35,775 nt of DNA, taken from contig DCVH01000032.1 of the NCBI GenBank assembly GCA_002327335.1, forward strand, positions 1 through 35,775. The letters are read 5' to 3'. Made by a program: the position numbers and the translations under genes. The notes beneath the pieces were generated by a model. It made no database searches, was not told the DNA's origin, and worked only from the letters and a program-made list of their open reading frames with translations. The stretch is from Patescibacteria group bacterium UBA2193. Its GTDB lineage: Bacteria; Patescibacteriota; Minisyncoccia; Moranbacterales; DUUL01. Below, piece by piece: positions 2,417 through 23,445 of the stretch. Position 1 is the first letter of the stretch, and every line of letters begins with the position of its first letter.

Positions 2417-4015
2417 ATGAAAAAAAACTGGCATTTTTTGGTTTTATTGGCAATTATAATTATTGCAATTTTTGTTAGAACCTATAATTATCATAATTGG
2501 TTATATTTTGAAGCTGATCAAGCAAGGAATGCAAAAAATTCAATAGAGGCAATAGAGGAAGGAGTCCAAAAAATTCCATTGTTGGGTCCAAAGGCGGGCG
2601 GGACTGATTTCCACCTAGGCCCCATTTCTTATTATTTTGAGTATGCATCCGGACTAATTTTTGGTATTGATTCCCCAGAAGTTTTCGCTTTTTCTAACTT
2701 ATTTTTTATTTTATTGGCCATTCCGCTTAGTTATTATTTTCTAAATTTATTTTTTGTAAAAGAGCAGAGTCTTTTGATTACAGCAATTTTTGCTTCTTCT
2801 TATTTGATAACGCAATATTCTCGTTTTTCTTGGAACCCAAATTCGATTATATTTTGGGGGTTACTTTTTATTGTGAGTGTTTACAAGACAGTTTCCGATA
2901 AGAATAAAAAACATATTGGATGGTGGCTTCTTTTGGTGAGTTTGAGCTATGGGATTGTCAGTCAACTTCATGTAATGGCTCTTTTGGGCTTTCCTTTGGT
3001 GGCACTATTTTTTTGGTTTTTTTATCATCCGTTAAATATAAATTGGAAATTTTGGGCCGGAGCTGTTTTAATTTTTCTTGTTTTATATTCACCATTAATT
3101 GTTTATGACGTGAAGACAAATGGTGATAACACAAGAGAGTTCATAAAAGCATTTAGCGTTAAGTCAGAAAAAAGAAGTTTTTTTGAAAAAATAGGAAAAA
3201 CAACAGAACAGTATGGCAAGTATTATTCATTAAGTATTTTTTCTATTAACGAAAAAGAACTGAAGGATGTGCGATGGCTTGGCTATTTGTTGATAAGTTT
3301 TTCTTTTGGTGCGAGTTTTGTTTTGGTGCGAAGAAATAAAAAAGAAAGAAATAATGTTAACTCGTTACCCAATGAATTTTTTGTTTTAATTGGAGGGTGG
3401 TTTTTGGTATTTCTTCTTTTGAATTACAAATTGGCTTTTGAAATTGACCAGCCAAGATTTTGGTTCTCATCTTTTTTTATTCCATATATTTTACTAGCCA
3501 TTCTGATTAAAAGTGTTTGGAGTAATAAAATAGGAAAAATAATTTCAATTTTTATTTGTATTTTTATTGTTACAATAAATTTAAGTGCTGTATTGAATTG
3601 GTATGAGGGGATGAAAAATCAAGATGAGAAAAACAGGTTTAGCAGAAAAATTTCAAGTACTTCTTTAATTCAAAGCGATTTTATTGCTTACGGTAAAATG
3701 GAAGAGTCGGTCGATTGGATAAGAGAAGAATCAAGAAGTAGTAAGAATGTTGCTTGTTTTAATAGTCCATCGACTTATTTGGCTTCTTATAAGTTTATTT
3801 TCGACAGAAACTATCCTGATTTTGAGGCAAAGCGCATTAACAAAACAATAGAAATGAACTTAGCTGATAATTGTGATATTTTTGTCATCGACCATGGCAA
3901 TAATTCAGCGGATGAGATAACTAATAGATTTTTTCAAAAAGGAGTAAAAATAAGCCTTAAAAAGGGCTACCAAACAGGATTAATAACTATTTGGAAAGCC
4001 TCTTTTGAGAAATAG
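2417..4015 (+). CDS. GT-C fold membrane glycosyltransferase, ArnT/PMT_2-like, paralog 2
   Basis: 532 aa. It carries the same signature (FEADQARNA..LLGPK..HLGPISYYF..YSRFSWNPN). It starts 10 nt after paralog 1 and lacks the acidic C-terminal tail of the others. Confidence 0.7.
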   Translation: MKKNWHFLVLLAIIIIAIFVRTYNYHNWLYFEADQARNAKNSIEAIEEGVQKIPLLGPKAGGTDFHLGPISYYFEYASGLIFGIDSPEVFAFSNLFFILLAIPLSYYFLNLFFVKEQSLLITAIFASSYLITQYSRFSWNPNSIIFWGLLFIVSVYKTVSDKNKKHIGWWLLLVSLSYGIVSQLHVMALLGFPLVALFFWFFYHPLNINWKFWAGAVLIFLVLYSPLIVYDVKTNGDNTREFIKAFSVKSEKRSFFEKIGKTTEQYGKYYSLSIFSINEKELKDVRWLGYLLISFSFGASFVLVRRNKKERNNVNSLPNEFFVLIGGWFLVFLLLNYKLAFEIDQPRFWFSSFFIPYILLAILIKSVWSNKIGKIISIFICIFIVTINLSAVLNWYEGMKNQDEKNRFSRKISSTSLIQSDFIAYGKMEESVDWIREESRSSKNVACFNSPSTYLASYKFIFDRNYPDFEAKRINKTIEMNLADNCDIFVIDHGNNSADEITNRFFQKGVKISLKKGYQTGLITIWKASFEK

Positions 4016-4093: not shown

Positions 4094-5905
4094 ATGTTAA
4101 AAAATATTTACAATGAAATAAACAAAAGTAAGAAGACAACAGCAGGATTGTTTTTGATAATTTTCTTGATCGGAATTTTCTTAAGAGTTTATCAATATCA
4201 TGATTGGCTTTTCTTTAAGTGGGACCAGGCTCGAGATGCGATGATTATTTCTGAGGCGATTGAAAATGGACCGAACTATCTTCCCCTTCTAGGTCCTCGC
4301 GCTACAAAAGTTGGAGATGACTATCTTCGCCTTGGACCAGCCTTTTATTATTCTCAATATGTTTTTGGGGCAATGTTTAATTCAACTGCACCAGAAGTAT
4401 TCGCTCTCCCCGATACATTTTTTGCAATTTTGACCATCCCTTTACTTTTCTTGTTTTTAAGATTGTATTTTAATAGAGTTAATTCTCTTTTAGGAACAAC
4501 TCTTTATGCATTTTCCTTTTTGGTTGTGCAATATTCTCGTTTTGCTTGGAATCCTAACTCCGTGCCTTTTTTTATGTTGCTTACTTTTTATGGAATGTTG
4601 ATGACATTGCGTTCTAGTGAATGTAGAAAGAAACTTCTTTGGCTTTTGGTGTGGATGTCATCAGTGGCAATTGTTACGCAATATCACTTCTTCGCCTTTT
4701 TCGGACTTATTGCTATTATGGCAGCCTATTTTTTCTTTTATCTGGAGCCTTGGAAGATAAGAGGGTTTTTAATTAAGCTTAAAGGAATTTTTAATAAAAA
4801 AACTATCGGATATGTTTTAGTTTCTTTGTTCGTTTTTTTGTTTATTTATACTCCAGTGATAATAAGTGACATGAAAACTGACGGGAGCAATGTGAAAAAC
4901 TTTGTTGGAGCTTTCGTTGAAAAGCCAAGAGACGACAAGAATTTTGGGGAGAAGCTTATAAGAAATTTCAGAGAGCAAGGGAAGAATTACAATTTAATAG
5001 CAACGTCTTTTTGGACGAGAGAGGGGAAAAAGGCTGATCCTTATCCGGTTGGGTTTGGATTGTTTTTGATGATCAGTGGCATAGTTCTCTCTTTATGGCA
5101 GAGAAATAAAACTAACAACGAAAATAAAAGAGACTTTTTATTGTTAATGCCAGTTTGGATTATTATGTTTTTTTTAATTACTATTTCTGTTTCATATCAA
5201 CTTCGTCCGAGATATTTTGTGCCGGTTTTTCCAGTGCCATTCATTGTTTTGGTTTTATGGTTTAGTTTTTTGAGAAAAAAAATTGCAAAAGGAGGCTTAG
5301 CTTTTGTGTTAGTGATATTTTCTGCTTTTCTTTTAATGAATTTCTATGGAATAGCGGCTTGGTTTAAAGATCAACATATTTCACAGCAGAGAAGTTTTTC
5401 TGTTGATAGGGATTTTATTCTTAAAAAACAGGACGGTGTTACTTTGGGACAATTAGAAAGGGCTGTTGACTATATTCATAAAAATTTTGAAGGAACAAGG
5501 GTTGCTTTTTATTCAAAGGCAGAATATAAACAGCCCATTATCTACTTAGTGAGTCAAATAAAGCCGAACAGGTTAAAAGAAGAAGCAGATCACATCGGCA
5601 GTGCCAGAGATTTAGTTGGTTATAGTGAACTTTTTGTTGTTGGAACCGTGAAAGGAGGGGTTAAATCTATTCCGAAAGATATTGAGGCATGTGTCGAAAT
5701 TGTTTTATCTGAAGAATTTGGCCAAGTAATGGTCTTCAAGATGAAAATTGATCAAAATAAGGTTTCTGAGTTTATTAAAAATTCTGAAAACAAGGGAGGA
5801 AAGGAAGATTTAAAGGAAAACAATGAAGCATCTTCAGAAGAGGAGGACGAGGTGGAAGTGGAAGACGGAAAGACAGAGAGATTGCTCTGGAAGGATGTTT
5901 TTTAA
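4094..5905 (+). CDS. GT-C fold membrane glycosyltransferase, ArnT/PMT_2-like, paralog 3
   Basis: 603 aa. Signature FKWDQARDA..LLGPR..RLGPAFYYS..YSRFAWNPN. The acidic tail ends in ERLLWKDVF. Confidence 0.7.
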   Translation: MLKNIYNEINKSKKTTAGLFLIIFLIGIFLRVYQYHDWLFFKWDQARDAMIISEAIENGPNYLPLLGPRATKVGDDYLRLGPAFYYSQYVFGAMFNSTAPEVFALPDTFFAILTIPLLFLFLRLYFNRVNSLLGTTLYAFSFLVVQYSRFAWNPNSVPFFMLLTFYGMLMTLRSSECRKKLLWLLVWMSSVAIVTQYHFFAFFGLIAIMAAYFFFYLEPWKIRGFLIKLKGIFNKKTIGYVLVSLFVFLFIYTPVIISDMKTDGSNVKNFVGAFVEKPRDDKNFGEKLIRNFREQGKNYNLIATSFWTREGKKADPYPVGFGLFLMISGIVLSLWQRNKTNNENKRDFLLLMPVWIIMFFLITISVSYQLRPRYFVPVFPVPFIVLVLWFSFLRKKIAKGGLAFVLVIFSAFLLMNFYGIAAWFKDQHISQQRSFSVDRDFILKKQDGVTLGQLERAVDYIHKNFEGTRVAFYSKAEYKQPIIYLVSQIKPNRLKEEADHIGSARDLVGYSELFVVGTVKGGVKSIPKDIEACVEIVLSEEFGQVMVFKMKIDQNKVSEFIKNSENKGGKEDLKENNEASSEEEDEVEVEDGKTERLLWKDVF

Positions 5906-9001: not shown

Positions 9002-9421
9002 TTATTGTTTTGTTTTTTTTCTTGATTGAGAAAGAAGATCTTTGAGAAAAAAAAGAATAATTCCACCAGTTATCATTATGTCGGCAATATTGAAAGTAGG
9101 GAATGAATAAAGATTTATATAATCAACTACGCACCCTTTTGTTATCCGGTCAATAATATTTGAAATTGCTCCAAAAAGAACAATTAGTAAAAATAAGTCA
9201 AAAGATTTTAGAAGAGAATAGAGGATGGTCAGGATAATTCCTGTCCAGATAGTCCAGAAAAGTATTTCATTTATCGGAATGCTCCAAGCAATGTTGAAGT
9301 TACAGGAATTAATCAAAAACCCTTCCGTTTCCGGAAAGGGTTTTTTTATCGAAAGGTATTTAACTATTTGATCAATCAATAATAAACTGGTAGCTATTAA
9401 AAGATAAAACCAATTTTTCAT
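9002..9421 (-). CDS. lspA: Lipoprotein signal peptidase (signal peptidase II)
   Basis: 139 aa with 4 TM helices. CNFNIAWSIP and VVDYINL...FPTFNIADIMITGG match the two conserved LspA boxes that include the catalytic Asp residues. Confidence 0.85.
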   Translation of the reverse strand: MKNWFYLLIATSLLLIDQIVKYLSIKKPFPETEGFLINSCNFNIAWSIPINEILFWTIWTGIILTILYSLLKSFDLFLLIVLFGAISNIIDRITKGCVVDYINLYSFPTFNIADIMITGGIILFFLKDLLSQSRKKTKQ

Positions 9422-9430
9422 TTTTTGAAG

Positions 9431-9790
9431 TTATTTTTGGCATTTTAAACAAGTACTTGCTGATGGGTAGGCCCGCAATCTTTCTAGGGGGATTTCTTCG
9501 TTTTCACAATTTTCGCAAATTCCATATGTTCCATTTTGCATTCGGTTAAGGGCTCCATTAACTTCCTTAAGTTTGTTTTCGAGAGTTTCTGTTATGCCAA
9601 GATTGTTTGAATATTCTTCAACTTCTTCAGCATTGTCTTCTTCGTCTCTTCCGATGTTTTCAAATTTTGCTTCATATTCATCTTTTCCTTCATCTTCTTT
9701 TTTTGCGATTAGGCCAAGTTCTTTTTCTAGTTTATCTTTTTCTTCCAAAAGAAGATTCTTAAGTTCCCCAAGAGTTTTTTCATTAATCAT
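9431..9790 (-). CDS. DksA/TraR family C4-type zinc-finger protein
   Basis: 119 aa. An N-terminal coiled coil is followed by C-terminal CENCENEEIPLERLRAYPSASTCLKC (CxxC-x17-CxxC). Confidence 0.8.
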   Translation of the reverse strand: MINEKTLGELKNLLLEEKDKLEKELGLIAKKEDEGKDEYEAKFENIGRDEEDNAEEVEEYSNNLGITETLENKLKEVNGALNRMQNGTYGICENCENEEIPLERLRAYPSASTCLKCQK

Positions 9791-10308: not shown

Positions 10309-13300
10309 ATGTTTAAAACAGTTGATGCGAAAAGGAAATATTCAGAAATGGAAGGGGATGTTTTGAAGTTTTGGAAAGAGAATAAGATTTTTGAGAAGTC
10401 TGTTGAACAAAGGGGTGAGGACAAGCTTTATAGCTTTTATGACGGCCCACCATTTGCCACAGGAGAGCCTCATTACGGTCATATAGTTGGAAGTACCATG
10501 AAGGACGTTGTGCCTCGCTATTGGGCAATGAAGGGCTTCAGAGTGGAACGTCGTTGGGGCTGGGACTGTCATGGTTTGCCAATCGAAAATATCGCTGAAA
10601 AAGACCTTGGTATTCATCATAAAAAAGAAATAGAAGAGCTGGGCGTGGAAAAATTCAATGAAACCTGTCGAACAAAGGTTTTGAGTTATGTTGAAGAATG
10701 GGAAAAAGTGATTGATAAATTGGGGCGTTGGGCTGACATGAAAAATGGTTACAAAACGATGGATCTTGATTATATGGAATCAGTTTGGTGGGTCTTCAAA
10801 CAACTTTATGACAAAGGATTGATTTATGAAGGTTATCGGTCTATGCATATTTGTCCTCGATGTGAAACCACTCTTTCTCAGACAGAAGTTTCCGAAGGAT
10901 ATAAGGATATTAAAGATTTATCTGTAATTGCAGAATTTCGACTTATTGATGATGAAAAAACTTCCATTCTTGCTTGGACGACAACTCCTTGGACATTAAT
11001 TGGAAATGTGGCATTAGCAGTGGGATCTGACATTGATTATGTTAAAATTGAAAAAAAAGACGAAGGTACTGGGGGCTTAGTCTGTTTTATCTTAGCAAAA
11101 GAAAAATTGGAGAATCTTTTTGAAGGGCAGGATTATAAAATTATTGAAGAATTCAAGGGAGCGGAATTGGTGGGGAAGGCCTATCGGCCATTATTTGGTT
11201 ATTATTCCAATCAAGAAAATCTGGAAAATCGAGAAAATGGTTGGAAAGTTTGTGCAGGTAATTTTGTGACTACTGAGGATGGGACCGGGATTGTGCATAT
11301 CGCGCCAGCTTTTGGTGAAGATGACATGAATCTCGGGAAAGAAAACAATCTTCCTTTTGTGCAACATGTTGGCATGGATGGAATTATCAAGAAGGAAGCA
11401 ATGGATTTTGTGGGACTTTCTGTGAAACCGCTTGGCGATCATCAAAAAACGGATGTGGAAATTATTAAATATTTAGCTCACAATAATCTGCTTTTCTCAA
11501 AAGAAAAGTTTGAGCATAGTTATCCGCATTGTTGGAGATGTGATACTCCGCTGATAAATTATGCAACTTCTTCTTGGTTTGTGGCGATTACAAAAATTAA
11601 AGAAAAAATGCTGGAGAACGCCAAGATTCTTAATTGGGAGCCATCATATATTAAAGAGGGACGATGGGGAAATTGGCTTGAAGGCGCGAGAGATTGGTCA
11701 ATCAGCCGACAGCGTTATTGGGCATCTGTAATGCCGATTTGGAAGTGTGAATGTGGTGAAATAAAGGTAATTGGTTCTGTTAAGGAATTAGAAGAGCAGA
11801 AGGATCTTGGAATTTTTTATGTGATGCGACATGGAGAAGCGGGGAATAATGTTGAAAGAGTGTTGTCTTGTAAGGTTGGAGATGGTAAATTCTTAACAGA
11901 AAAGGGCGTTTCTGATGTAAATAATACTGCGGAAAAATTAGTTGATAAAAAAATAGACCTTATTATCTCTTCTGATATTGATCGAACCAAGCAAACCAGT
12001 GAAATTGTTGCCAAAAAACTGGGGGTTGAAATCATTTATGATTCTAGATTAAGAGAAACTGATACAGGTGATTATAATGGAGTAAAAATTGATGATATTA
12101 AGGATTTTGTTGATAATTGGGAGAATGGATGCAAAGAGAGTTTTCCAAATGGTGACAGCTGGGAAAATCTGGGAGAAAGAATGGAAAATTTCTATAATGA
12201 TATTTTTTCTAAATATCGAGGTAAGAAAATATTAGTAGTTTCTCACGGTGATTTAATTAATGCATTAGAAGCGAAATTTGTAGATGGTAATTATCTAGAT
12301 AATGTCAAAGCAGTTTATCAAAATAATTACATTAATAAAGCTGAGCTTAGGGAGAAAAAATACAAAATAATTGATCTTCATAAACACATTGTCGATAAAA
12401 TAACTTTTCCTTGCGAAAAATGCGGGAAAGAAATGAAAAGGATTCCGGATGTTCTGGATACCTGGTTTGATAGTGGTTCAATGCCATATGCCCAGGCGCA
12501 TTATCCGTTTGAAAATAAGGAAAAATTTGAAAAAAGTTTTCCGGCTGAATTTATTGCGGAAGGAATTGACCAAACTCGAGCCTGGTTCTATTATTTGCAC
12601 GCGATTGCTACCGGAATTTTTGACAAAGAAGCTTTTCGAAATGTGATTGTAAACGGAATTGTTTTGGCGGAAGATGGGAAAAAAATGTCCAAAAGACTCA
12701 AAAACTATCCAGATCCAACTGAAATGATTGAAAAATATGGAGCGGATGTTTTGAGATTTTATCTTCTTTATTCTCCGGTAGTTCGTGCCCAGAATCTTAA
12801 TTTTTCGGAAAAAGATCTAGCCGAATTTTCCCGGGGAATGTTTCGAATGATTCAGAATTCTTATTCATTCTTTGTTTTATATGCAAATATTGATAAATGG
12901 AGCCCTGCTGAAAAAACAGAACCTAAAAATTTATTGGACAAGTGGCTTTTATCTGAATTGAATATGTTGATTCGAGATGTTGATTTAGCGATGGAAAATT
13001 ATGAATTAAACAAAGCAGTTCGTCTTTTCCCGCAATTTGTTGATAATCTTTCCAATTGGTATATCAGGAGATCTCGAAGAAGATTTTGGAAAAGCGAGAG
13101 CGACGAAGACAAGAATAATGCCTATCAAACACTCTGGACAGTTTTGACAGAATTTTCAAAGGTTTTGGCACCATTTTGTCCTTTTATTTCCGAGGAAATT
13201 TATCGGAATTTAACAGGCGAAGAATCGGTGCATCTTTGTGATTTTCCGGTTGCTGATGAGAAATTAATTGATGAGAAGCTGAATGCAAACATGGGTGATC

Positions 13301-13791
13301 TTCGAGAGATTATAACATTGGGATTGCAAGATAGGGCTAAAAATAAAATCAAAGTTCGTCAACCATTGAAGCGCGTTTTTCTTGGGCAAAAATATATGAG
13401 AGTGTTCGAAGAGCTGATTAATGAAACAGAATGGAGCAACATTTTGACGGAAGAGCTTAATGTAAAAGGAGCAGAGCTTGGGACTGAAATTGAAACAATA
13501 ACAGTTGATATTGAAGTTACTCCAGAACTTAGACTTGAAGGCCAAATGCGGGAGCTTATTCGTCACATTCAACAAGCCAGAAAAGAGGCTGATTTCCAAA
13601 TTGATGATCGGATAGATGTCTTCTATGAAGGTGGGGCAGAAATTTTTGGAAAAACAGAATTATATGAAGAAATCAAAAAGGAAGTTCTGGCAAAAAAACT
13701 TGAAAAAGTTGGAAACGAGAAACCAGAAGCAGATATTGAAAAAGAAGCAAGAATTGATGATTTGATAATTAGATTTTGGTTGAAAAAATAA
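10309..13791 (+). CDS. ileS: Isoleucyl-tRNA synthetase, type 2 (eukaryote/archaeal-like), carrying an inserted extra domain
   Basis: 1160 aa. It has PHYGHIVG (HIGH), WGWDCHGLP, the editing-domain signature WTTTPWTLIGN, the WISRQRYW box, KMSKR (KMSKS), and no C-terminal Zn-finger peptide of type 1 enzymes. Confidence 0.95.
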   Translation: MFKTVDAKRKYSEMEGDVLKFWKENKIFEKSVEQRGEDKLYSFYDGPPFATGEPHYGHIVGSTMKDVVPRYWAMKGFRVERRWGWDCHGLPIENIAEKDLGIHHKKEIEELGVEKFNETCRTKVLSYVEEWEKVIDKLGRWADMKNGYKTMDLDYMESVWWVFKQLYDKGLIYEGYRSMHICPRCETTLSQTEVSEGYKDIKDLSVIAEFRLIDDEKTSILAWTTTPWTLIGNVALAVGSDIDYVKIEKKDEGTGGLVCFILAKEKLENLFEGQDYKIIEEFKGAELVGKAYRPLFGYYSNQENLENRENGWKVCAGNFVTTEDGTGIVHIAPAFGEDDMNLGKENNLPFVQHVGMDGIIKKEAMDFVGLSVKPLGDHQKTDVEIIKYLAHNNLLFSKEKFEHSYPHCWRCDTPLINYATSSWFVAITKIKEKMLENAKILNWEPSYIKEGRWGNWLEGARDWSISRQRYWASVMPIWKCECGEIKVIGSVKELEEQKDLGIFYVMRHGEAGNNVERVLSCKVGDGKFLTEKGVSDVNNTAEKLVDKKIDLIISSDIDRTKQTSEIVAKKLGVEIIYDSRLRETDTGDYNGVKIDDIKDFVDNWENGCKESFPNGDSWENLGERMENFYNDIFSKYRGKKILVVSHGDLINALEAKFVDGNYLDNVKAVYQNNYINKAELREKKYKIIDLHKHIVDKITFPCEKCGKEMKRIPDVLDTWFDSGSMPYAQAHYPFENKEKFEKSFPAEFIAEGIDQTRAWFYYLHAIATGIFDKEAFRNVIVNGIVLAEDGKKMSKRLKNYPDPTEMIEKYGADVLRFYLLYSPVVRAQNLNFSEKDLAEFSRGMFRMIQNSYSFFVLYANIDKWSPAEKTEPKNLLDKWLLSELNMLIRDVDLAMENYELNKAVRLFPQFVDNLSNWYIRRSRRRFWKSESDEDKNNAYQTLWTVLTEFSKVLAPFCPFISEEIYRNLTGEESVHLCDFPVADEKLIDEKLNANMGDLREIITLGLQDRAKNKIKVRQPLKRVFLGQKYMRVFEELINETEWSNILTEELNVKGAELGTEIETITVDIEVTPELRLEGQMRELIRHIQQARKEADFQIDDRIDVFYEGGAEIFGKTELYEEIKKEVLAKKLEKVGNEKPEADIEKEARIDDLIIRFWLKK
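11800..12369 (+). other. Histidine phosphatase superfamily (PGAM-like, branch 1) domain inserted in-frame within IleRS
   Basis: Residues ~498-687 contain FYVMRHGEAGNN (R507-H508), SSDIDRTKQTSE, LRETDTGDYNG and LVVSHGDLI (H646). The flanks are the two IleRS Cys pairs, WKCECGE and PCEKCGKE. Confidence 0.8.
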
Positions 13792-13864: not shown

Positions 13865-14710
13865 CTATTCTTTTCCTAATTCTTTTTTAATCTTTTCGAT
13901 AATTTCTTCGGTGTTGAAATGGGCTTTTACGAGATAGTCGTTGGCGCCGATTTTGATAGCTTTTTCGATATCATCTTTCTGTCCAAGATTTGAAAGCATA
14001 ATGATTGGAACTTTTTGCACCTCTGGGTTAGAAAGTCCTCTGATTTTTTCTAGTACTTCAAACCCATCGATAGCAGGGAGGATAATGTCTAATAGTACGA
14101 TGTCAGGGTTGATTTTTTCAACGTTTTTCAAAGCTTCTTCTCCGTCAATTGCTTCATAAACCTCAAATCCTTCCTTGCTTAATTTCTTAGCGCAAATATC
14201 TCTCAAAAAAGAATCATCTTCAACCAACATTACTTTTATTCCAACACTTTCTTTCGCGCCTTCTTCCTTTCGAGGTTGGATAACTTCTTCGTCCGTAGCT
14301 GTTTCTGAGGCTGTTTCTCCTGTTGCGGTTTCGTTTGAAGAATTAAGGTATTTTTGAACTTTTTCAATTACTTCCTTCGGATCAAATTGAGTTTTGATTA
14401 GATGATCAATTGCTCCTAATTTTTTTGTTTTTTCGATTTCAACTGGTTGACCGGAGTTTGAAATGATAATTACTGGGGTTTTGACTCCTTCCTCGTTCAT
14501 CTTTTCTAAAACCTCATAGCCGTCCATTTTTGGCATTACAATATCAAGAAGAATTAAATCTGGTCCCCAACTTTTGATATTGTTGTAGCCATCTTCACCA
14601 TCAAAAGAAACTTTTACTTCATGTCCTTCTTTGATGAGTTTTGCCTCAAGAACGTCTGCTAGCGCTTCCTCGTCTTCTATCAGCAATATTTTAGCGGTTT
14701 TATTTTCCAT
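13865..14710 (-). CDS. Response regulator with two receiver (REC) domains and no output domain
   Basis: 281 aa. Two CheY-like units carry phospho-acceptor contexts LILLDIVMPKMDG and IVLLDIILPAIDG. They are joined by an acidic T/E-rich linker, and no DNA-binding or enzymatic domain is present. Confidence 0.85.
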   Translation of the reverse strand: MENKTAKILLIEDEEALADVLEAKLIKEGHEVKVSFDGEDGYNNIKSWGPDLILLDIVMPKMDGYEVLEKMNEEGVKTPVIIISNSGQPVEIEKTKKLGAIDHLIKTQFDPKEVIEKVQKYLNSSNETATGETASETATDEEVIQPRKEEGAKESVGIKVMLVEDDSFLRDICAKKLSKEGFEVYEAIDGEEALKNVEKINPDIVLLDIILPAIDGFEVLEKIRGLSNPEVQKVPIIMLSNLGQKDDIEKAIKIGANDYLVKAHFNTEEIIEKIKKELGKE

Positions 14711-14746
14711 AATTTTATTTATTATTTTTTTATTAAATTATTTAAA

Positions 14747-14791
14747 GCAAAGACAGAAATGGTGCTTTTGGAAGCACAAAATGTCTTTTGC
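14747..14791 (-). promoter_or_regulatory. Intercistronic stem-loop between the HK1 stop and the REC-REC start
   Basis: Nested complementarity: GCAAAGACA...UGUCUUUUGC encloses GTGCTT-TTGG-AAGCAC. The function (attenuator or processing site) is unknown. Confidence 0.4.
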
Positions 14792-14809
14792 TGTTTTTAA
14801 AATGCTTTT

Positions 14810-16402
14810 CTACAGTTTACTATTTTTCAACGGTAATGTAAAACTAATTTTGGTTCCTTTGCCTTCTTCGCTTTCAATGCTGATTCTTCCTTTGTGTTCT
14901 TCTACAATATTTTTAGCAATAAACAAGCCCAATCCGCTTCCTTCTGTTTGCATTCTCATTACATTAGTAGCTCGGAAGAACTTTGTGAATAATTTAACTT
15001 TATCTTCTTCTGGAACACCAACTCCATTGTCTTTGACAGCAACTTCAAGAAAATCTTCTCCTTTCTTTTCAAGGATAATCTCAATCTTCCCAAACTCTGG
15101 TGTATATTTTATAGCATTATCTACGAGATTTTGCAAAACCAAAAGGATTCTTTCTTTGTCTATATACACTTTCGGCAGAGAAGGTGGTTTTGTAATTATC
15201 AATTTTTGATTATTTTTCTTTATGAGATTTTTAACATTATCATCAACAATGTCTATTACTTCCTGAAAATCGCACATATTAAAATCATAGCCAAATCTTC
15301 CTTCCTCGATTCGGGAAACACTGAGCAGATCATTTACAAGTTCAATAATTCTTTCATTACTTCGGTATCCTTTGTCCAGAAGCTCTTTTTGTTCGTCGTT
15401 TAATGTTCCACAGTCTTCATCGAGAATCATTTTAATTACCCATTTAATTGCAGAAAGAGGGGTTCTTAGTTGATGGGCGGCAATTGAAATAAACTCAGAT
15501 TTCATTCGATCAATCGCTTTTTCTCTGGTGAGATCATGGAATATTTTCATTGTTCCAAGATAAGAGTCTTTGTCAAAAACCTTGGCTGTAATCACTTTGT
15601 AAATAATTTCTTTATCGCCATTTTTTATGGTTACTTCCTCCGTTATCTCCTCTTCTGATTCAGAGCCTATTTCTTTAACCTCAAAATCTTTTCGAGCTAT
15701 TTTATGAAAATTGTTCATGGAAAAATTTTCATTTTCGAAAGCTTTTTGCCCAAGAGCGTCATCTCTTAAGCCAAAAACTTCTTTGGCCGCTGGATTGAGA
15801 AGACTAATAACCCCATTTTTATCAGCTACGATAATCGGGTCAACAAGATTGGAAAGAATGGCAGAGGTTTTGTTTTTTTCTTCTTCAACTTTTTTTCTAG
15901 CATCTTCTGTGTCCTCAAGCATGTTAATTAAGGACTTTTTTGTTCTTTCAAGCTCCTCAGTTCTTTCTGCGACCTTTTCCTCAAGCCCTTCTTGCAATTT
16001 TTTTATTTCCGTTATATCAGAAATAGCTAAAAAGAAGCCAATGAAATTCTTTTCTCGGTCTGTTCTTTTCGCAACAGAAACGTTGACGGACATTTTTTTG
16101 CCCTCCTTGGTAACCAGAATCATTTCTTGATTTTCGATGATTTCTTCGTTAGCTGATTTTTTTAGAAAATCATCGAGGAGGGTTTGATTTTCAAAAAGCT
16201 TGTTTGCATATTCTCCGATGAGATCAATTTCGCTGAATCCTGTCATTTTTTTAGCAGATTCATTGATGTCAACGATAACATTTCTTGGATTTATGGTGCA
16301 AACCGAAAGAGGAAGAAAAAAAGAAAACTCTTCAATATATTTTTCCAAACTTTCTATGTCCTCATAGATTTGTTGGGAAAGTTTGTCTTGTTGATTCTCC
16401 AT
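14810..16402 (-). CDS. Soluble PAS-domain sensor histidine kinase (HK1)
   Basis: 530 aa with no TM segment and PAS-like repeats. The HisKA H-box is SEFISIAAHQLRTPLSAI. The HATPase N/G boxes are NLVDNAIKYTP, DNGVGVP and GSGLGLFIAK. Confidence 0.9.
   Translation of the reverse strand: MENQQDKLSQQIYEDIESLEKYIEEFSFFLPLSVCTINPRNVIVDINESAKKMTGFSEIDLIGEYANKLFENQTLLDDFLKKSANEEIIENQEMILVTKEGKKMSVNVSVAKRTDREKNFIGFFLAISDITEIKKLQEGLEEKVAERTEELERTKKSLINMLEDTEDARKKVEEEKNKTSAILSNLVDPIIVADKNGVISLLNPAAKEVFGLRDDALGQKAFENENFSMNNFHKIARKDFEVKEIGSESEEEITEEVTIKNGDKEIIYKVITAKVFDKDSYLGTMKIFHDLTREKAIDRMKSEFISIAAHQLRTPLSAIKWVIKMILDEDCGTLNDEQKELLDKGYRSNERIIELVNDLLSVSRIEEGRFGYDFNMCDFQEVIDIVDDNVKNLIKKNNQKLIITKPPSLPKVYIDKERILLVLQNLVDNAIKYTPEFGKIEIILEKKGEDFLEVAVKDNGVGVPEEDKVKLFTKFFRATNVMRMQTEGSGLGLFIAKNIVEEHKGRISIESEEGKGTKISFTLPLKNSKL
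14816..15135. repeat. Copy 1 of a 320-bp near-identical repeat (3' end of HK1)
   Basis: By hand alignment at a constant offset of 4117 nt, it matches 18933-19252 at 319/320 positions. The single difference is at 15017/19134. Confidence 0.9.
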
Positions 16403-16420
16403 GTTGTTTGTTTTTTTTAT

Positions 16421-17026
16421 TTATTCCCAGCGAAAAATGAATTCATAGCAATCTTTTTTCTGAACTCCATCTCCTTTAATATTTTCTATTCCAAGGGCAA
16501 TTTCTCCCATTTTTTCGAAAGAGCCGACAATGAAAAGATAGTCTACTGGATGGGTTTTAAAATTTTTGAGGCGAAGGATCACTTCTTTCTCATTTTCATC
16601 ATATTTTAAAAACTCTAAATCTCCCCGGGTGTAATGTTTTCTCCAATTTCTTGTGCCTGCCTCGATTGTTTTTTGAGGAGATATAAAATATTTTACAAAT
16701 ATTTTGAGTAGAGGGGAAAATGTTACGAAATTTCTTCCCATCTCAATAATGTCTTGTCTTTTCCATTTAAAAAATTTGGCGCTTGCTATAACGAAAAATA
16801 CTGGAATTTTCATTGGAATCCAACTCATTTTTTCAAAGGCTTCAATTTTTGGCAAAACAAATCCAATTGATTGAAGATTGTTTAGGAGAAGATTATATTT
16901 TCCTTCCCCTTCTTTTTTTTTGACATATTCCGTGACATACCTCAGGTCAAGCGCTCGTTCCTCTCCCTCGATTTTATTTATATCAGCAAGTTCTTCCTCA
17001 AGGCTTTTAAATTTTAATTCCTCCAT
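16421..17026 (-). CDS. Hypothetical protein, paralog B of a pair; possible V4R/H-NOX-like small-ligand-binding fold
   Basis: 201 aa. It shares IIEMG, YFIS, W(R/K)xHY, F(K/E)xHP and a C-terminal CYEFIFRWE-type ending with the adjacent ORF. It lies inside the two-component operon. Confidence 0.75.
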   Translation of the reverse strand: MEELKFKSLEEELADINKIEGEERALDLRYVTEYVKKKEGEGKYNLLLNNLQSIGFVLPKIEAFEKMSWIPMKIPVFFVIASAKFFKWKRQDIIEMGRNFVTFSPLLKIFVKYFISPQKTIEAGTRNWRKHYTRGDLEFLKYDENEKEVILRLKNFKTHPVDYLFIVGSFEKMGEIALGIENIKGDGVQKKDCYEFIFRWE

Positions 17027-17032
17027 TTTTTT

Positions 17033-17635
17033 CTACCAGGTTACTTTAAATTCGTGATATTCATCGCCCTTAAACATGCATTTTGTTTCTTTCATGACCA
17101 TATTTTCCGCTTTAACTATCATTCTGCAAATAGAAAGAAAATATCCTTTGTAATATTCACATAAAATCGGGTGAACCTCAAAATCTTTTAGGGGGAAAAC
17201 GAGATAATTGTCATTTACAACACTTGGATCAGGAACAACAAGTTCCCCGACGGAATAATGTTCTTTCCAGTATTTCGAGGCTTCCGAGAAAGTTTTTTCA
17301 AAGGAGATAAAATATCTCAGCAGAGTCCTTACAATAAAAGAGTATTTAGGGGCGGCTTCTCCCATTTCTATTATTTTTTCATTATCCCACTCAAAAACAT
17401 CTTGAATAAGGAGAATGGAAAGAACCCGCAGACTCAAGGGATACCATTTTGTAGCGTTTGCTTCTCCGTTGTAGTCTATGGGGATGTTTAATTGATTTGC
17501 CATGTTTTGAAGTTTCTCGAGGCCCTCTTCACCCATTTTTTCTTTTATGAACTCCGCATCAGTCTTGAAAACAACTCCTCGCGTTTCTCCTTTAACATTA
17601 TCAAGGATATTCTTAATTATTTTTTCATCAAGCAT
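17033..17635 (-). CDS. Hypothetical protein, paralog A of a pair; possible V4R/H-NOX-like small-ligand-binding fold
   Basis: 200 aa. The C-terminal KETKCMFKGDEYHEFKVTW resembles the ExxCxxxGDxxCxF ending of V4R domains. The fold assignment is tentative. Confidence 0.75.
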   Translation of the reverse strand: MLDEKIIKNILDNVKGETRGVVFKTDAEFIKEKMGEEGLEKLQNMANQLNIPIDYNGEANATKWYPLSLRVLSILLIQDVFEWDNEKIIEMGEAAPKYSFIVRTLLRYFISFEKTFSEASKYWKEHYSVGELVVPDPSVVNDNYLVFPLKDFEVHPILCEYYKGYFLSICRMIVKAENMVMKETKCMFKGDEYHEFKVTW

Positions 17636-17676
17636 GGTTTTGGTCTAAATATTTATGTGAAAATTTAAGGGAAAAG

Positions 17677-18888
17677 TTAATTATTTTTAATTAATTCAAT
17701 CTCTTCTCGAAGTTTTTTGTTTTCTTCTTTCAATTCCATCATGCGAAACTCTCTATTGACAGTTAGCTTTTGAATTTTTTCTAGTTCTTTTATTTTTGTT
17801 TCAAGCTCCCAGGCTCTTTTTTGCAATTGTTCTTCTGTTTTTTTGAGTTGAGTGATGTCCTTGGCGATGCAAATAATTCCTACAATATGATTGTCTTTGT
17901 TTTTGAGAAGAGAGTCAGAGAAGATTACTGGGATGTTTTCTCCTTCTTTGGTCACCAGTAATAAATTATAATTATTAATTGTGAGACCGCTGAAAGCTTT
18001 GCTGATAACCATTTCCTTGAAATTGTCTTCCATGAAAAGTCCATTCAATCCAAGCTCTTTTATTTCTTTTTCGCTATATTTGGAAAGAGAGAGCGTGGCC
18101 TTGTTGATGGTGTTTATTTTTCCTTGAAGATCAATGAGGATAAGGGCATCTGACATTGTTTCTATAATATTTTCAGCGGCAGTCGAAGGAGTAATTCCAA
18201 GGAATCTATATCTAACCATAGCATAAATAATTCCGAAAGACCAAATGAGAGAGAAGAGGTCGGCAGTGGAAGGAATTTTATGAATACCAAATTCTTGGAG
18301 AATAACATTAGTAAGAGTCCCGAGTGTCAGGGGGACAAGAGACGCAATAATAATAATTTTTGCCTGCTTTCTTTTTAATACGGAGGTAGATTTTCTGTAA
18401 AAATCAATTAATAGATAGATTGGGAACAATGAAAAGAGGGTGTAATAGAAATAGAAAGAATAAGTCAGTAAAGAGTCAGACCAAACATGCGACCAGCCAT
18501 AGGAGGTTTCTATGAAGGTATAGATCAGTTTTCCTTGCCATTGTTGCGAGATAAAAAATAAAGCAGGGAGAAAGAGTAAGATTAAATAATATTTTTTATT
18601 TAAAAAACTTTTTTTATCAGTAAAAACCAAAACAAACCAAAAGAAGAAGGCAGAAAAAGAAATCCAACCGATGGAGTCAATTTTATTTGCCAAAACTGCT
18701 CCTTCATAGGGGGTGTTTGGATTGTTAATAAAAAACATTCCAGCGCTCCAGATCACAAAACAAGCAAGATAAGCCGCGATTATCCGGTTGAGAGTTTTTT
18801 TAGGATCTTTATAGAGAATAAAGACAATAAAAAATAAAAAGATTAATAAACTCAGAAGGTTAGCAAGGGATAATAGCGAAATCTCCAT
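17677..18888 (-). CDS. Membrane sensor protein: N-terminal multi-TM (7TM-type) domain, PAS domain and C-terminal coiled coil, with no kinase domain
   Basis: 403 aa. About 7 hydrophobic helices occupy the first 215 aa. These are followed by a PAS-like core (IIETMSDALILIDLQGKI...GIICIAKDITQLKKTEE) and a heptad-rich tail. H-box and HATPase motifs are absent. Confidence 0.8.
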   Translation of the reverse strand: MEISLLSLANLLSLLIFLFFIVFILYKDPKKTLNRIIAAYLACFVIWSAGMFFINNPNTPYEGAVLANKIDSIGWISFSAFFFWFVLVFTDKKSFLNKKYYLILLFLPALFFISQQWQGKLIYTFIETSYGWSHVWSDSLLTYSFYFYYTLFSLFPIYLLIDFYRKSTSVLKRKQAKIIIIASLVPLTLGTLTNVILQEFGIHKIPSTADLFSLIWSFGIIYAMVRYRFLGITPSTAAENIIETMSDALILIDLQGKINTINKATLSLSKYSEKEIKELGLNGLFMEDNFKEMVISKAFSGLTINNYNLLLVTKEGENIPVIFSDSLLKNKDNHIVGIICIAKDITQLKKTEEQLQKRAWELETKIKELEKIQKLTVNREFRMMELKEENKKLREEIELIKNN

Positions 18889-18905
18889 TTTTTCTTATTT
18901 TTGTA

Positions 18906-20708
18906 TTATTTATTTGCTTCTTTTTGCTTTATTTTACTATTTTTCAACGGTAATGTAAAACTAATTTTGGTTCCTTTGCCTTCTTCGCTTTCAATGCTGA
19001 TTCTTCCTTTGTGTTCTTCTACAATATTTTTAGCAATAAACAAGCCCAATCCGCTTCCTTCTGTTTGCATTCTCATTACATTAGTAGCTCGGAAGAACTT
19101 TGTGAATAATTTAACTTTATCTTCTTCTGGAACTCCAACTCCATTGTCTTTGACAGCAACTTCAAGAAAATCTTCTCCTTTCTTTTCAAGGATAATCTCA
19201 ATCTTCCCAAACTCTGGTGTATATTTTATAGCATTATCTACGAGATTTTGCAGAGCGAGAAGAATGCGATCTTTGTCCATATAGACTTCTGGCAGGATAT
19301 CTGGTTTAGTGATGACTAATTTTTGATGGCTCTTGGCAACAGCCCTTTCCACGTTTTCTGTGATGGTGATAAGAATTTCCTTGAAATCATATGTGCCGAA
19401 GTTATAGCCAAATTTTCCTTCTTCAATTGTGGAGGCGTTCAACAAATCATTTACAAGTTCAATGATTCTTTCGTTGCTTTTATAGCCTTTTTCGAGAAGT
19501 TCTGCTTGTTCCTTGTTGAGTTTTCCGACGTCTTCATCCAAAATCATTTTAATTACCCACTTAATTGCGGAAAGGGGAGTTCTTAGTTGATGAGCGGCAA
19601 CAGTGATAAATTCTGATTTCATTTTGTCTATTTGTTTTTCTCGGGTCAGGTCATAGAAAATCTTCAAAAATCCATAGCAAGCAGTTTTATCATTGCCTCG
19701 GCACACAGAAGTAGTGATCACTTTAAAAGTTTTTTGTTGACCTTTGTGTTCAATTTCAATTTCTTCAATAGGATTGTTATTTTCATCAAGCTCACTTACT
19801 TTTTCGTTTATTTTAAAATTATTTTTGATTAGTTTTTTGAAGTTAGCAAAACTATAGTGATTATCAGAAGAAATTTTTGTTCCATAGTTATTTTCGTTTA
19901 TGCCGAGAATTTCTTTTGTAGAAGCATTAACAAGGCTGATTTCCTTTCTGCTGTTGACGAAGATGATTGGACCGGTGAAATTGGCGACAATTGCACCTAT
20001 TTTATTTTTTTCTTCTGTCAATTCGGCATTTATTTTTGATAGAGATTTTTCTTTCCTGGAGAGAAGGCTTGTTTTTTTGCTGAGTTGTTTTGTCTGGGAT
20101 TCGAGAAGGTCTTCTCTTTTGAAAAGAAGGCTTGCTCCGTAACCACTATAAATTCCAATAATAATATAGAAAATCGAAGTGGTAATTGTTTTTGTTAAAA
20201 TAATTGGAAGACTGTTTAATTCAGGAGACAGCACTTCATATCTTGAAATGTGAGGAATGATGCCAAAAAATTCAAGGGTTACCAAGGTATTTATGAGCAA
20301 GGCAGCGAAAAGAGCGGTGATAATTGAGCCTTTGGTCCCTAGTAAATAAGAAGCAGAGACTATTGGCATAAAGAAAAAAGTTATAGCAACACTTTCTATT
20401 CCTCCGGCATAGTGCATTATCAAAGTCAGGATTCCTAGCTCGACAAAAACCTGTCCAATACTCAAAATATGAAGACCCTTAGCGGAGCGACTTCTGTTGA
20501 TTCGGCGGAAAGCTAGTTCAAAAACAATATTAATCAATGCAAAAATCATCAACAATAAAAGCATGTTGAGAATGGAAAAGTTGACATTGGAATGGCTCAG
20601 AACTTTTGAAACAGCACCAATTGCAAAAACACCCATTCCATAGAACCAGCGGGCATTGATCAGCCAACGATTAACTTCTATTTTTCTTTCTATATGTATA
20701 TTTAACAT
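18906..20708 (-). CDS. Membrane-bound PAS sensor histidine kinase (HK2)
   Basis: 600 aa. About 6 N-terminal TM helices are followed by a coiled coil and a PAS-like region. The H-box is SEFITVAAHQLRTPLSAI, and the HATPase domain is identical to that of HK1. Confidence 0.9.
   Translation of the reverse strand: MLNIHIERKIEVNRWLINARWFYGMGVFAIGAVSKVLSHSNVNFSILNMLLLLMIFALINIVFELAFRRINRSRSAKGLHILSIGQVFVELGILTLIMHYAGGIESVAITFFFMPIVSASYLLGTKGSIITALFAALLINTLVTLEFFGIIPHISRYEVLSPELNSLPIILTKTITTSIFYIIIGIYSGYGASLLFKREDLLESQTKQLSKKTSLLSRKEKSLSKINAELTEEKNKIGAIVANFTGPIIFVNSRKEISLVNASTKEILGINENNYGTKISSDNHYSFANFKKLIKNNFKINEKVSELDENNNPIEEIEIEHKGQQKTFKVITTSVCRGNDKTACYGFLKIFYDLTREKQIDKMKSEFITVAAHQLRTPLSAIKWVIKMILDEDVGKLNKEQAELLEKGYKSNERIIELVNDLLNASTIEEGKFGYNFGTYDFKEILITITENVERAVAKSHQKLVITKPDILPEVYMDKDRILLALQNLVDNAIKYTPEFGKIEIILEKKGEDFLEVAVKDNGVGVPEEDKVKLFTKFFRATNVMRMQTEGSGLGLFIAKNIVEEHKGRISIESEEGKGTKISFTLPLKNSKIKQKEANK
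18933..19252. repeat. Copy 2 of the 320-bp near-identical repeat (3' end of HK2)
   Basis: See copy 1. Identity falls abruptly to an ordinary paralog level beyond 19252. Confidence 0.9.
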
Positions 20709-22713: not shown

Positions 22714-23445
22714 CTATTTCAAATTGTTCCACGCAATATCAAAAATTTGTTTTTGAGCGAATGATGACTCGGGACTTTCCATGATAGTCGTGATTCGAGG
22801 TCCTGATAATTGATGAGAAAGTATTTTTTGGGGAGTAAAAACCAGGTTTGCATGAATCTGAGTCCCTTTTGGTAATAATTTTACTTGTTCGTTATAATTT
22901 TTTTGATGTTTTAGTGAATTTCTTCCGAATTCGTTGTCAACCAACATTAATTTCAAATCCAAGTTCATTTTCGCTCTTTTGCGCATGAATTTTTCAAAAA
23001 ATATTGGGTCGGTGTTGTACCAAAGGTTTCCATCGCTGACGATATAGTAAAAATCTCCAGATTTGAGGTTTTCTAGCATAGACAAAAAAGCTGATCTCAT
23101 CCCATTGATTCCTTTAAAATGAAAAATTTCATTGGTTCCAATGTTTTGGCATTTTTCTACTTTTGATTTTAAAGTGTTTATTACCTGATTGGTTTGTTGC
23201 TCGACAAGATTTTTAAGGTTTTCGGGTGATTCAGCTGAATAATATTTTTTGAAACCTGTTTCTTTTAATTTAAAAAGTCCCATTTCCATTAAATTATTAA
23301 TCAGAGCATAGACATTTGTTCGTCCCAGTCCTGTTTTCAGGGAAATCTCTGATATCTTAGTTGGGCCAAGTTCAAGACCGGCAAGATAAACCTGTGCCTC
23401 ATTTTCTTTCAAGCCTAATTTTTCTAGTTCTTTTAAAAAGTTCAT
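22714..23445 (-). CDS. TrmB-family transcriptional regulator (paralog 1 of 4)
   Basis: 243 aa. The N-terminal winged HTH is LGLKENEAQVYLAGLELGPTKISEISLKTGLGRTNVYALINNLMEMGL. The C-terminal domain and its ending (FDIAWNNL) are shared with the ORFs at 25533, 27452 and 30796. Confidence 0.8.
   Translation of the reverse strand: MNFLKELEKLGLKENEAQVYLAGLELGPTKISEISLKTGLGRTNVYALINNLMEMGLFKLKETGFKKYYSAESPENLKNLVEQQTNQVINTLKSKVEKCQNIGTNEIFHFKGINGMRSAFLSMLENLKSGDFYYIVSDGNLWYNTDPIFFEKFMRKRAKMNLDLKLMLVDNEFGRNSLKHQKNYNEQVKLLPKGTQIHANLVFTPQKILSHQLSGPRITTIMESPESSFAQKQIFDIAWNNLK

Follow-up and report, generated by a model that had tools for sequence, protein, structure and literature searches.

A histidine phosphatase domain nested in the CP3 subdomain of isoleucyl-tRNA synthetase in Patescibacteria, and its possible link to aminoacylation

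Introduction

Few enzymes are as conserved as aminoacyl-tRNA synthetases, and where their Rossmann-fold core houses extra catalytic domains, these have, to our knowledge, so far served editing. Can the catalytic domain of such an enzyme also house a second, unrelated catalytic centre, and what would it do there? The question is raised by the isoleucyl-tRNA synthetase (IleRS) gene, ileS, of Patescibacteria group bacterium UBA2193 (NCBI GenBank assembly GCA_002327335.1), which lies on contig DCVH01000032.1 within the 35,775-nucleotide (nt) stretch that was analysed as a whole and is called the window throughout. An initial annotation, made from the letters and open reading frames (ORFs) of this stretch, had described the product as a type-2 IleRS with a complete histidine phosphatase inserted in its Zn-knuckle region. 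In this study, we asked whether this nested architecture is real, which kind of phosphatase it involves, in which organisms and synthetases it recurs, and what its role may be. We are very nearly certain that the architecture is real, and we show that the layout is common to at least 79 Patescibacteria species and that the phosphatase is repeatedly coupled, both genomically and physically, to three class I synthetases.

Results

A phosphatase in place of a short CP3 loop

The window ORF of 1160 amino acids (aa) scored 930.2 bits against the NCBIfam ileS model TIGR00392, above the equivalog cut-off of 621.4, and outside the insert it is colinear over its whole length with the structure of Priestia megaterium IleRS2 (8c8v; E 1.8e-228), in agreement with its first description as a colinear type-2 enzyme of this length. 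In Pfam, the tRNA-synt_1 domain (PF00133) is broken at residue 498, with aa 18-498 matching profile positions 2-267 of 414, and is followed in order by His_Phos_1 (PF00300) at aa 504-687, the remaining synthetase, Anticodon_1 and DUF5915, so that the anticipated interruption of tRNA-synt_1 at about residues 500-690 was recovered by hmmscan. The His_Phos_1 match (E 6.3e-33; 114.5 bits against a gathering score of 21.7) spans profile positions 2-188 of 194, and the segment of 190 aa (positions 11800-12369, 570 nt, exactly codons 498-687) returned the same domain when translated alone (E 2.8e-34).

The 120 best homologues, aligned with MAFFT, comprise 41 carriers of the insert and 79 insert-less relatives. 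In the 79 relatives without the insert, the two cysteine pairs of the knuckle are 43-44 aa apart; in 40 carriers the spacing grows to 223-242 aa, and in the remaining one (P0027) a further insert extends it to 397 aa. In the alignment with 8c8v, residues 3-497 of the window protein correspond to chain residues 2-477, and the match resumes at residue 688, equivalent to chain residue 486; about 190 aa therefore stand in place of a CP3 loop of about eight residues. The extra residues first reported between the cysteine pairs were thereby borne out, and an equivalent segment in ordinary type-2 IleRS, which would have undone the claim, is excluded by the 79 insert-less relatives and by 8c8v. Since the published limits of CP3 (residues 473-534 of C. 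albicans IleRS and 459-526 of the yeast enzyme; PMC7191050; PMC7955072) enclose the insertion point, we place it in this subdomain. The zinc motif of Thermus thermophilus IleRS also lies within CP3 (PMC7191050), and the 'Zn-knuckle region' initially named was thus the right place and can now be specified as CP3, in the catalytic-core half that precedes the KMSKS signature (aa 498-687 vs 792-796), as had been stated.

CP3 starts directly after the CP2-CP3 linker, and the window segment ARDWSISRQRYWA, 26-38 residues upstream of the insertion point, is the homologue of the yeast linker ARDWNVSRNRYWG. In ScIleRS, this linker (453-ARDWNVSRNRYWG-465) lines the pocket in which reveromycin A mimics the tRNA CCA end (PMC7955072), which suggests, by analogy, that the insert sits near the entrance for the acceptor end.

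Judged from its sequence, the host is shown to be an intact housekeeping type-2 IleRS, with the HIGH and KMSKS signatures, the CP1 editing motif, the CP3 knuckle and the C-terminal domains conserved (Table 1). Many further synthetase residues are invariant in the alignment of 76 relatives, from which AlphaFold (AF2) built a full-length model with a predicted local distance difference test (pLDDT) score of 83.7 and a predicted template modelling (pTM) score of 0.75. Block means within the insert were 83-96, mostly >90, and the model superposed on 8c8v with a TM-score of 0.76 (normalised to the target). All motifs quoted in the initial annotation are present, one having been misquoted: 'WISRQRYW' reads WSISRQRYW (aa 463-471). 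The mupirocin-resistance enzymes MupA and MupB (NF000257 and NF000258) were rejected as a classification of the host, at 781 and 783 bits against an exception cut-off of 1900.

An intact architecture in independent assemblies

Oddities found in a single metagenome-assembled genome (MAG) are often artefacts, and the unusual ORF might have reflected a chimeric assembly, a wrong ORF call, or a degenerate phosphatase relic serving as a structural spacer. A few related loci do show interruptions of the carrier ileS, namely an in-frame stop at ~980-1058 in L009 and frameshifts at 3466-5003 in L012 and ~4969-5001 in L015; these lie before or within the N-terminal half and are probably assembly errors, and the 'split ileS' beginning at the phosphatase that they simulate was dismissed as no true feature. 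Against an artefact, the identical 1160-aa protein is found with the same neighbours on eight independently assembled contigs from a JGI metagenome (64 kb), an ENA assembly and two Logan runs, covering at least four samples and three pipelines, so that the gene passed the check for misassembly that had been proposed at the outset. Codon usage of the insert is within the host range (cosine 0.880 vs 0.899 +/- 0.016 for random chunks of the host gene), and its guanine-plus-cytosine content of 0.31 is closer to the mean of the window (~0.34) than to that of the flanks, where the synthetase is conserved (0.37). Together with the presence of the layout in at least 79 species genomes, these results rule out chimerism and a mis-called ORF, while a dead relic is ruled out by catalytic residues that are invariant or nearly so and by a confident fold (AF2 pLDDT 96.7 for the insert). 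We regard the artefact or dead-domain explanation as effectively refuted and of negligible probability. An intein or other mobile in-frame element was also rejected, as the extra segment shows only His_Phos_1, folds as a complete enzyme and has host-like codon usage.

A compact phosphatase outside the characterised subfamilies

The insert contains the complete catalytic set of histidine phosphatase branch 1 (R507, H508, R559, E583 and H646) and is, on this basis, apparently active. Every catalytic hallmark listed in the initial annotation was found and proved to be conserved in the 41 carriers, and the loss of catalytic residues in orthologs, which would have spoken for degeneration, was not seen (E583 in 40/41). 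Mean pairwise identity among carriers is 37% for the inserts and 68% for the host cores; catalytic residues are thus kept while the insert drifts, the pattern expected from selection on catalysis alone.

Modelled alone by AF2, the insert folded confidently (pLDDT 96.7, pTM 0.92), and in Foldseek it matched Rv2419c, a riboflavin-pathway phosphatase, PspA, PhoE and CobC with TM-scores of 0.82-0.85, root-mean-square deviations of 2.0-2.5 A and probability 1.00. The TMt score was 0.74-0.80 to such compact phosphatases vs ~0.6 to dPGM/BPGM, and the nearest solved proteins by sequence were PhoE/YhfR (E 3e-12), CobC and PspA. Each candidate subfamily was rejected in turn. Cofactor-dependent phosphoglycerate mutase reached 30.8 vs 81.7 bits (TIGR01258) and 22 vs 305 bits (NF010713), with a poorer structural match as well, and scores against cut-offs were 97 vs 225 bits for the archaeal short dPGM model, 85.2 vs 162.9 for CobC alpha-ribazole phosphatase (TIGR03162), 72.6 vs 350 for PspA phosphoserine phosphatase (NF045917), 86.9 vs 261 for GpmB (NF002901), and 32 vs 74.5 for SixA (TIGR00249). 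Because every curated subfamily model scores far under its cut-off, the insert is, by profile and predicted fold, classed as a compact phosphatase-type member of branch 1 (PF00300) outside every characterised subfamily. The early label 'PGAM-like' was therefore right at the level of the superfamily, but the fold is that of a compact phosphatase and not of a true mutase.

Carriers across Patescibacteria

All 41 carriers among the 120 IleRS closest to the query derive from Patescibacteria/Parcubacteria MAGs, where they are annotated only as 'isoleucine--tRNA ligase' or 'class I tRNA ligase family protein'. When the insert served as query in an exhaustive phmmer search, 1316 proteins were retrieved at E<=1e-10; most of the long proteins among the best 150 are IleRS that have the domain in the same position, with cores only 39-57% identical to that of the window. 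A profile of six sub-family sequences was then run over GTDB, with one genome for each of 185,579 species, and yielded at least 553 confirmed relatives. The best 80 of these loci comprise 79 IleRS in which the same flanks enclose the domain, their cores only 40-66% identical to the window's, and one valyl-tRNA synthetase (ValRS). Nearly all of the best 80 are Patescibacteria by record title, from many classes and including complete genomes; a few titles of third-party assemblies among the carrier loci name other phyla, labels that may be unreliable.

Carriers and non-carriers interleave in a core-only neighbour-joining tree (943 columns), in a sample that is biased towards carriers and has cores ~70% identical. 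P0003, the nearest relative of the window protein (79% core identity), is without the phosphatase, and distances between inserts correlate only moderately with those between cores (Mantel r 0.37). A single gain of the insert, tried on this tree, found no clear support, carriers being interspersed with non-carriers in this carrier-biased sample.

Full-text searches of the literature, which covered a 2026 preprint on IleRS evolution and a 2026 survey of domain insertions, turned up no account of a phosphatase inside an aminoacyl-tRNA synthetase. The carrier sequences themselves are public and come with precomputed Pfam hits. The initial statement that no synthetase with an embedded phosphatase was known thus holds for the literature searched and not for public Patescibacteria genomes, and the homologue search it called for revealed how widely the insertion is shared (41/120 closest IleRS, 79 of the best 80 GTDB loci). 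The architecture is undescribed yet common: it adds a variant to the known synthetases with accessory domains and is no singleton.

The same phosphatase in other synthetases and as a free gene

Four states of the phosphatase were observed: a free gene between argS and ileS, a fusion to arginyl-tRNA synthetase (ArgRS), and copies nested in IleRS and in ValRS. The ValRS copy is at the homologous CP3 site, where one BLASTP alignment is colinear through synthetase and phosphatase and the Pfam split falls at profile position 265 vs 267 in the window IleRS; a further ValRS copy is in CP1 (P0232), and a ValRS fragment of 1161 aa (P0121) bears four tandem His_Phos_1 domains after aa 417. IleRS itself has a second site near aa 740, which is at times occupied alongside CP3 (P0122 and P0157, with two copies each). 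The C-terminal ArgRS fusion (P0173) was found on two ~70-kb contigs, where ileS is no longer adjacent, and recO directly follows the fusion in L102. In a nearest-neighbour analysis of 289 domains, copies in IleRS were closest to other IleRS copies in 174/183 cases and copies in ValRS to ValRS or IleRS copies in 8/9, while the ArgRS copy and tandem free proteins were nearest to free-standing phosphatases.

The closest free homologues are of ~190 aa, and seven of the nine sampled adjoin argS and/or ileS with gaps of 1-119 nt, one being elsewhere in its genome and one on a contig too short to judge. Several of them show the same-strand order argS, phosphatase, ileS, as in L093 (3303-8367), L096 (401-5663) and L087 (801-4004), where a 190-aa phosphatase precedes a plain ileS; the two fully visible downstream ileS products are plain proteins of 931 and 984 aa. 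Gaps in the operons of L093 and L096 are 1-4 nt, recO follows ileS beyond one small ORF in both, and L093 is preceded by smpB, infC, rpmI and rplT. Among the carriers, argS is directly upstream in 36/62 loci with enough upstream sequence, in 12 of them within 300 nt, and no second free copy of the phosphatase was present within 5 kb in any of 80 carrier loci.

The strongest rival to a functional link is that a neighbouring gene for a metabolite phosphatase was captured into a permissive CP3 loop and, once its free copy had been lost, became locked in, leaving two independent enzymes on one chain. The free gene immediately 5' of ileS and the local mutual exclusion of nested and free copies are what this explanation would lead one to expect, and so are non-catalytic surfaces that drift fast, solved neighbours that are all metabolite phosphatases, and sister IleRS loops occupied by unrelated enzymes (alpha/beta-hydrolase-like, NUDIX). 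Synthetases have, in addition, been reported as preferred hosts of domain insertions (PMC13114784). However, the argS-phosphatase-ileS order is kept with gaps of 1-4 nt although the IleRS cores are only ~40-60% identical, the domain has been fixed independently in at least five positions of three class I synthetases, including ValRS, and the phosphatase has remained with ArgRS in a genome whose ileS is no longer nearby. Fusions that recur, together with a conserved neighbourhood, are in comparative genomics usually a sign of functional association. We consider mechanistic coupling of the phosphatase to aminoacylation slightly more probable than not, and capture without coupling a possible but somewhat doubtful explanation.

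Further domains nested in sister IleRS

Other enzymes also occupy loops of related IleRS. MutT/RppH-like NUDIX domains occur at two CP1 sites (P0003, aa 219-331; P0018, aa 321-448; P0060, aa 321-439), in P0018 together with the CP3 phosphatase and in P0003 as the NUDIX alone. An alpha/beta-hydrolase-like segment with a weak Ser_hydrolase match lies in CP1 of P0009 and P0042 (aa ~277-450). The NCBIfam model of IleRS with an N-acetyltransferase (GNAT) domain, NF040702, has ~170 extra positions apparently in CP1, near window residues 251-307 in profile coordinates, the same hot-spot as for the NUDIX and hydrolase inserts.

In L073, a free 160-aa NUDIX gene with a Nudix box stands between argS and a phosphatase-carrying ileS, and its product shares 30% identity with the NUDIX domain nested in P0003 (E 3.5e-8). 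NUDIX hydrolases in both settings favour a role in which the phosphatase would act on small molecules that the synthetase produces or binds, co-localised for their local clearance: AMP or PPi, pulling activation forward, or inhibitory 2'/3'-nucleotides and pAp. IleRS, ValRS and ArgRS all have ATP-derived nucleotides as ligands, and among the best families below threshold is CobC, whose substrate is a nucleotide analogue with a ribose-5'-phosphate. Several points make such clearance improbable: histidine phosphatases are not known as pyrophosphatases, the destruction of AMP would be costly for these organisms, which depend on nucleotide salvage, diffusible substrates give little cause for nesting in cis, and no specificity residues are identifiable.

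In P0027, a P-loop segment (aa 489-~650) directly precedes the phosphatase inside CP3. A free P-loop gene between argS and ileS in L074 was considered as its parallel and dropped, being unrelated to this segment. A kinase-like segment before the phosphatase would form a kinase/phosphatase pair, and it bears on the idea that the nested domain is a cis-acting protein phosphatase which lifts an inhibitory phosphate, set by a kinase toxin or a regulatory kinase, from the synthetase itself. HipA- and HipT-type kinases inactivate the class I synthetases GluRS and TrpRS, and the histidine phosphatase superfamily includes the protein phosphatases SixA, PGAM5 and Sts. We hold this idea to be very improbable, since the SixA model falls short (32 bits vs 74.5), the structural neighbours are metabolite phosphatases, the kinase-like insert is found in one protein only, and IleRS, ValRS and ArgRS have neither a known phosphosite nor a known cognate kinase.

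Features of the window

The features of the window ileS are collected in Table 1.

Table 1. Coordinates of ileS and of the elements identified within it (window positions; residue numbers refer to the 1160-aa product)
Feature	Position	Strand	Evidence
ileS ORF, 1160 aa, type-2 IleRS with nested phosphatase	10309..13791	+	ORF call, TIGR00392
HIGH signature HYGH, aa 55-58	10471..10482	+	H55, G57, H58 invariant, 76 relatives
CP1 editing-domain motif WTTTPWT, aa 223-229	10975..10995	+	invariant, alignment of 76 relatives
CP2-CP3 linker ARDWSISRQRYWA, aa 460-472	11686..11724	+	sequence, invariant residues
CP3 Zn knuckle, first Cys pair C480/C482	11746..11754	+	invariant in carriers and non-carriers
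Nested His_Phos_1 domain, aa 498-687	11800..12369	+	Pfam, alignments, AF2, Foldseek
RHG motif R507, nucleophile H508, G509 (predicted)	11827..11835	+	R, H 41/41; G 40/41 carriers
Second phosphate-binding Arg R559, RTxxT motif (predicted)	11983..11985	+	41/41 carriers
General acid Glu E583 (predicted)	12055..12057	+	E 40/41, D 1/41 carriers
Second catalytic His H646-G647 (predicted)	12244..12249	+	H 41/41, G 38/41 carriers
CP3 Zn knuckle, second Cys pair C702/C705	12412..12423	+	invariant in carriers and non-carriers
KMSKS signature KMSKR, aa 792-796	12682..12696	+	K792, K795 invariant, 76 relatives
Anticodon-binding domain, aa 877-1021	12937..13371	+	Pfam PF08264, E 2e-35
Type-2 IleRS C-terminal domain DUF5915, aa 1053-1143	13465..13737	+	Pfam PF19302, E 7e-16

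Upstream of ileS, on the opposite strand, are lspA (signal peptidase II) and a gene for a DksA/TraR-type zinc-finger protein (9002-9421 and 9431-9790 (-)), and the classical ileS-lspA linkage is thus kept in proximity only. Neither a tRNA gene nor an Rfam element (e.g. a T-box) was found near ileS in the window. A signalling cluster lies directly downstream, likewise on the opposite strand (13865-20708 (-)). Its response regulator (13865-14710) has two receiver domains but lacks an output domain; the other members are two histidine kinases, one with a PAS domain (14810-16402) and one at 18906-20708, and between them a 7TM-PAS protein (17677-18888). Three paralogous winged-helix regulators of the TrmB family, each of ~245-255 aa, are encoded within 6 kb (22714-23445, 25533-26297 and 27452-28198 (-)). 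At the other end of the window, consecutive ORFs of 580, 532 and 603 aa without a Pfam match (664-2406, 2417-4015 and 4094-5905 (+)) precede genes for a GT2/GtrA glycosyltransferase and a PMT-like protein, and this region may be a cell-envelope glycosylation locus.

Discussion

A possible role on adenosine-ribose phosphates

The reading that we tentatively prefer, although we rate it at somewhat less than an even chance, is that the protein is a bifunctional enzyme whose phosphomonoesterase works together with class I synthetases, probably on an adenosine-ribose phosphate. The ligands that IleRS, ValRS and ArgRS share are the tRNA acceptor end and ATP-derived nucleotides. The phosphatase would be an accessory enzyme of class I aminoacyl-tRNA synthetases, and nesting would set it in cis, at 1:1 stoichiometry, beside the ligand-binding cleft of the synthetase. 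H508 would take the phosphoryl group from the phosphomonoester, and hydrolysis assisted by E583 would then free the phosphate. The leading candidate substrate is a tRNA with a 3'(2')-phosphorylated A76 end, which would be unchargeable until the phosphate is removed, and the second is a nucleotide such as 2'/3'-AMP, pAp or AMP. That the substrate is specifically the tRNA end we consider unlikely, if far from negligible in probability. Among the candidate roles first proposed (nucleotide, ApnA-type by-product, tRNA-end phosphate, signalling), those on nucleotides and on the tRNA end receive indirect support from the genomic context.

A tRNA with a 3'-phosphate, a cyclic phosphate or a pyrophosphate cannot be charged. 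Toxins that pyrophosphorylate tRNA 3' ends block charging in this way (PMC11559606), and PMC2190708, citing Yakunin 2004 (pmid 15210699), credits the E. coli CCA-adding enzyme with a phosphatase/2'-nucleotidase domain. The NUDIX and P-loop kinase-like inserts of sister IleRS are leads for the same theme of ribose phosphates and tRNA ends. On a bolder view, which in our estimate is unlikely, class I synthetases of Patescibacteria carry a built-in, cis-acting toolkit for the tRNA acceptor end, in which a sister NUDIX would first cut a 3'-pyrophosphate, the nested histidine phosphatase would strip the 3'(2')-phosphate from A76, and kinase-, hydrolase- and GNAT-type inserts would handle other end modifications. 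Transfer RNAs blocked by RNase- or toxSAS-type toxins, or in the course of turnover, would then be repaired on the very synthetase that is about to charge them.

Several observations weigh against a role on adenosine-ribose phosphates, and against the tRNA end in particular. All characterised close structural relatives of the insert act on small metabolites, and RNA ends are not a known substrate of any histidine phosphatase. The mean net charge of the inserts is ~0, with no systematic positive charge, and an RNA-binding signature, which was also sought, is therefore unsupported. Beyond the motifs common to the superfamily (RHGExxN, LTxxG, RTxxT, E..G and HG), no conserved residues were found in the insert, and therefore no specificity pocket can be read from it. 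Acting in cis from within IleRS, the phosphatase would be confined to tRNA-Ile, an odd restriction for a role in general tRNA repair, and the two to four copies in some proteins fit none of the mechanisms considered. In the window itself argS is not adjacent to ileS, and the likeness of the P0027 P-loop segment to APS, dephospho-CoA and CMP kinases is weak (E ~1e-5).

At least 79 species of a major bacterial radiation have an essential synthetase whose catalytic domain houses another catalytic centre of an unrelated kind, and this is of consequence with or without functional coupling. If the coupling is functional, it would point to a step of charging, or of its protection, that has not been seen in model organisms (end repair, by-product clearance or de-inhibition), and would open to experiment the translation biology of the candidate phyla radiation (CPR), of which little is understood. 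If the toolkit reading is true, it would add a new proofreading or repair layer to aminoacylation and would be the first known case of a histidine phosphatase with an RNA end as its substrate. Even if its meaning is only genomic, the locus is an example of a neighbouring gene turned nested domain, and it indicates that the CP3 and CP1 loops tolerate whole enzymes, which is relevant to synthetase engineering.

Comparison with known systems

With the type-2 IleRS of P. megaterium (IleRS2, 8c8v) and T. thermophilus (1ile), the window protein shares the HIGH and KMSKS signatures, the CP1 editing motifs and the C-terminal domain, and with the latter the four-cysteine CP3. It differs from 8c8v in having a separate catalytic domain of ~190 aa where that enzyme has the loop 477-486. 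The insert, in turn, has the same fold, size and catalytic set as the compact phosphatases PhoE/YhfR (1ebb, 1h2e), Rv2419c (4qih, 6s2q; a glucosyl-3-phosphoglycerate phosphatase), PspA (4ij5/6; a phosphoserine phosphatase), CobC (6nru, 3hjg) and the riboflavin-pathway HFP (9mmh), but it is only 21-27% identical to these enzymes, which are neither nested in nor operon-linked to aminoacyl-tRNA synthetases.

The NCBIfam family NF040702 is a curated precedent for an extra enzyme domain inside the IleRS chain. Its domain is of the GNAT class and, by profile coordinates, in CP1, whereas the window insert is in CP3, and membership of the window protein was rejected (321 bits against a cut-off of 1999). 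The HD domain of the E. coli CCA-adding enzyme resembles the proposed action on tRNA ends in that an enzyme of the tRNA 3' end has a phosphoesterase of its own, with 2',3'-cyclic phosphodiesterase, 2'-nucleotidase and phosphatase activities as PMC2190708 relates in citing Yakunin 2004; we treat this analogy as a lead only. The HD domain is metal-dependent, of unrelated fold, and terminal in another host enzyme, whereas the window insert is nested. Two known proteins join His_Phos_1 to other enzymes: the Rv2228c-type RNase H/acid phosphatase (NF005567, whose phosphatase half the insert matches with 83 bits, below the cut-off) joins it to a nucleic-acid enzyme, and PFK-2/FBPase-2 places it after a P-loop kinase, in the same order as in P0027. 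Both are end-to-end fusions with unrelated partners and substrates, whereas the phosphatase of the window is nested inside its synthetase.

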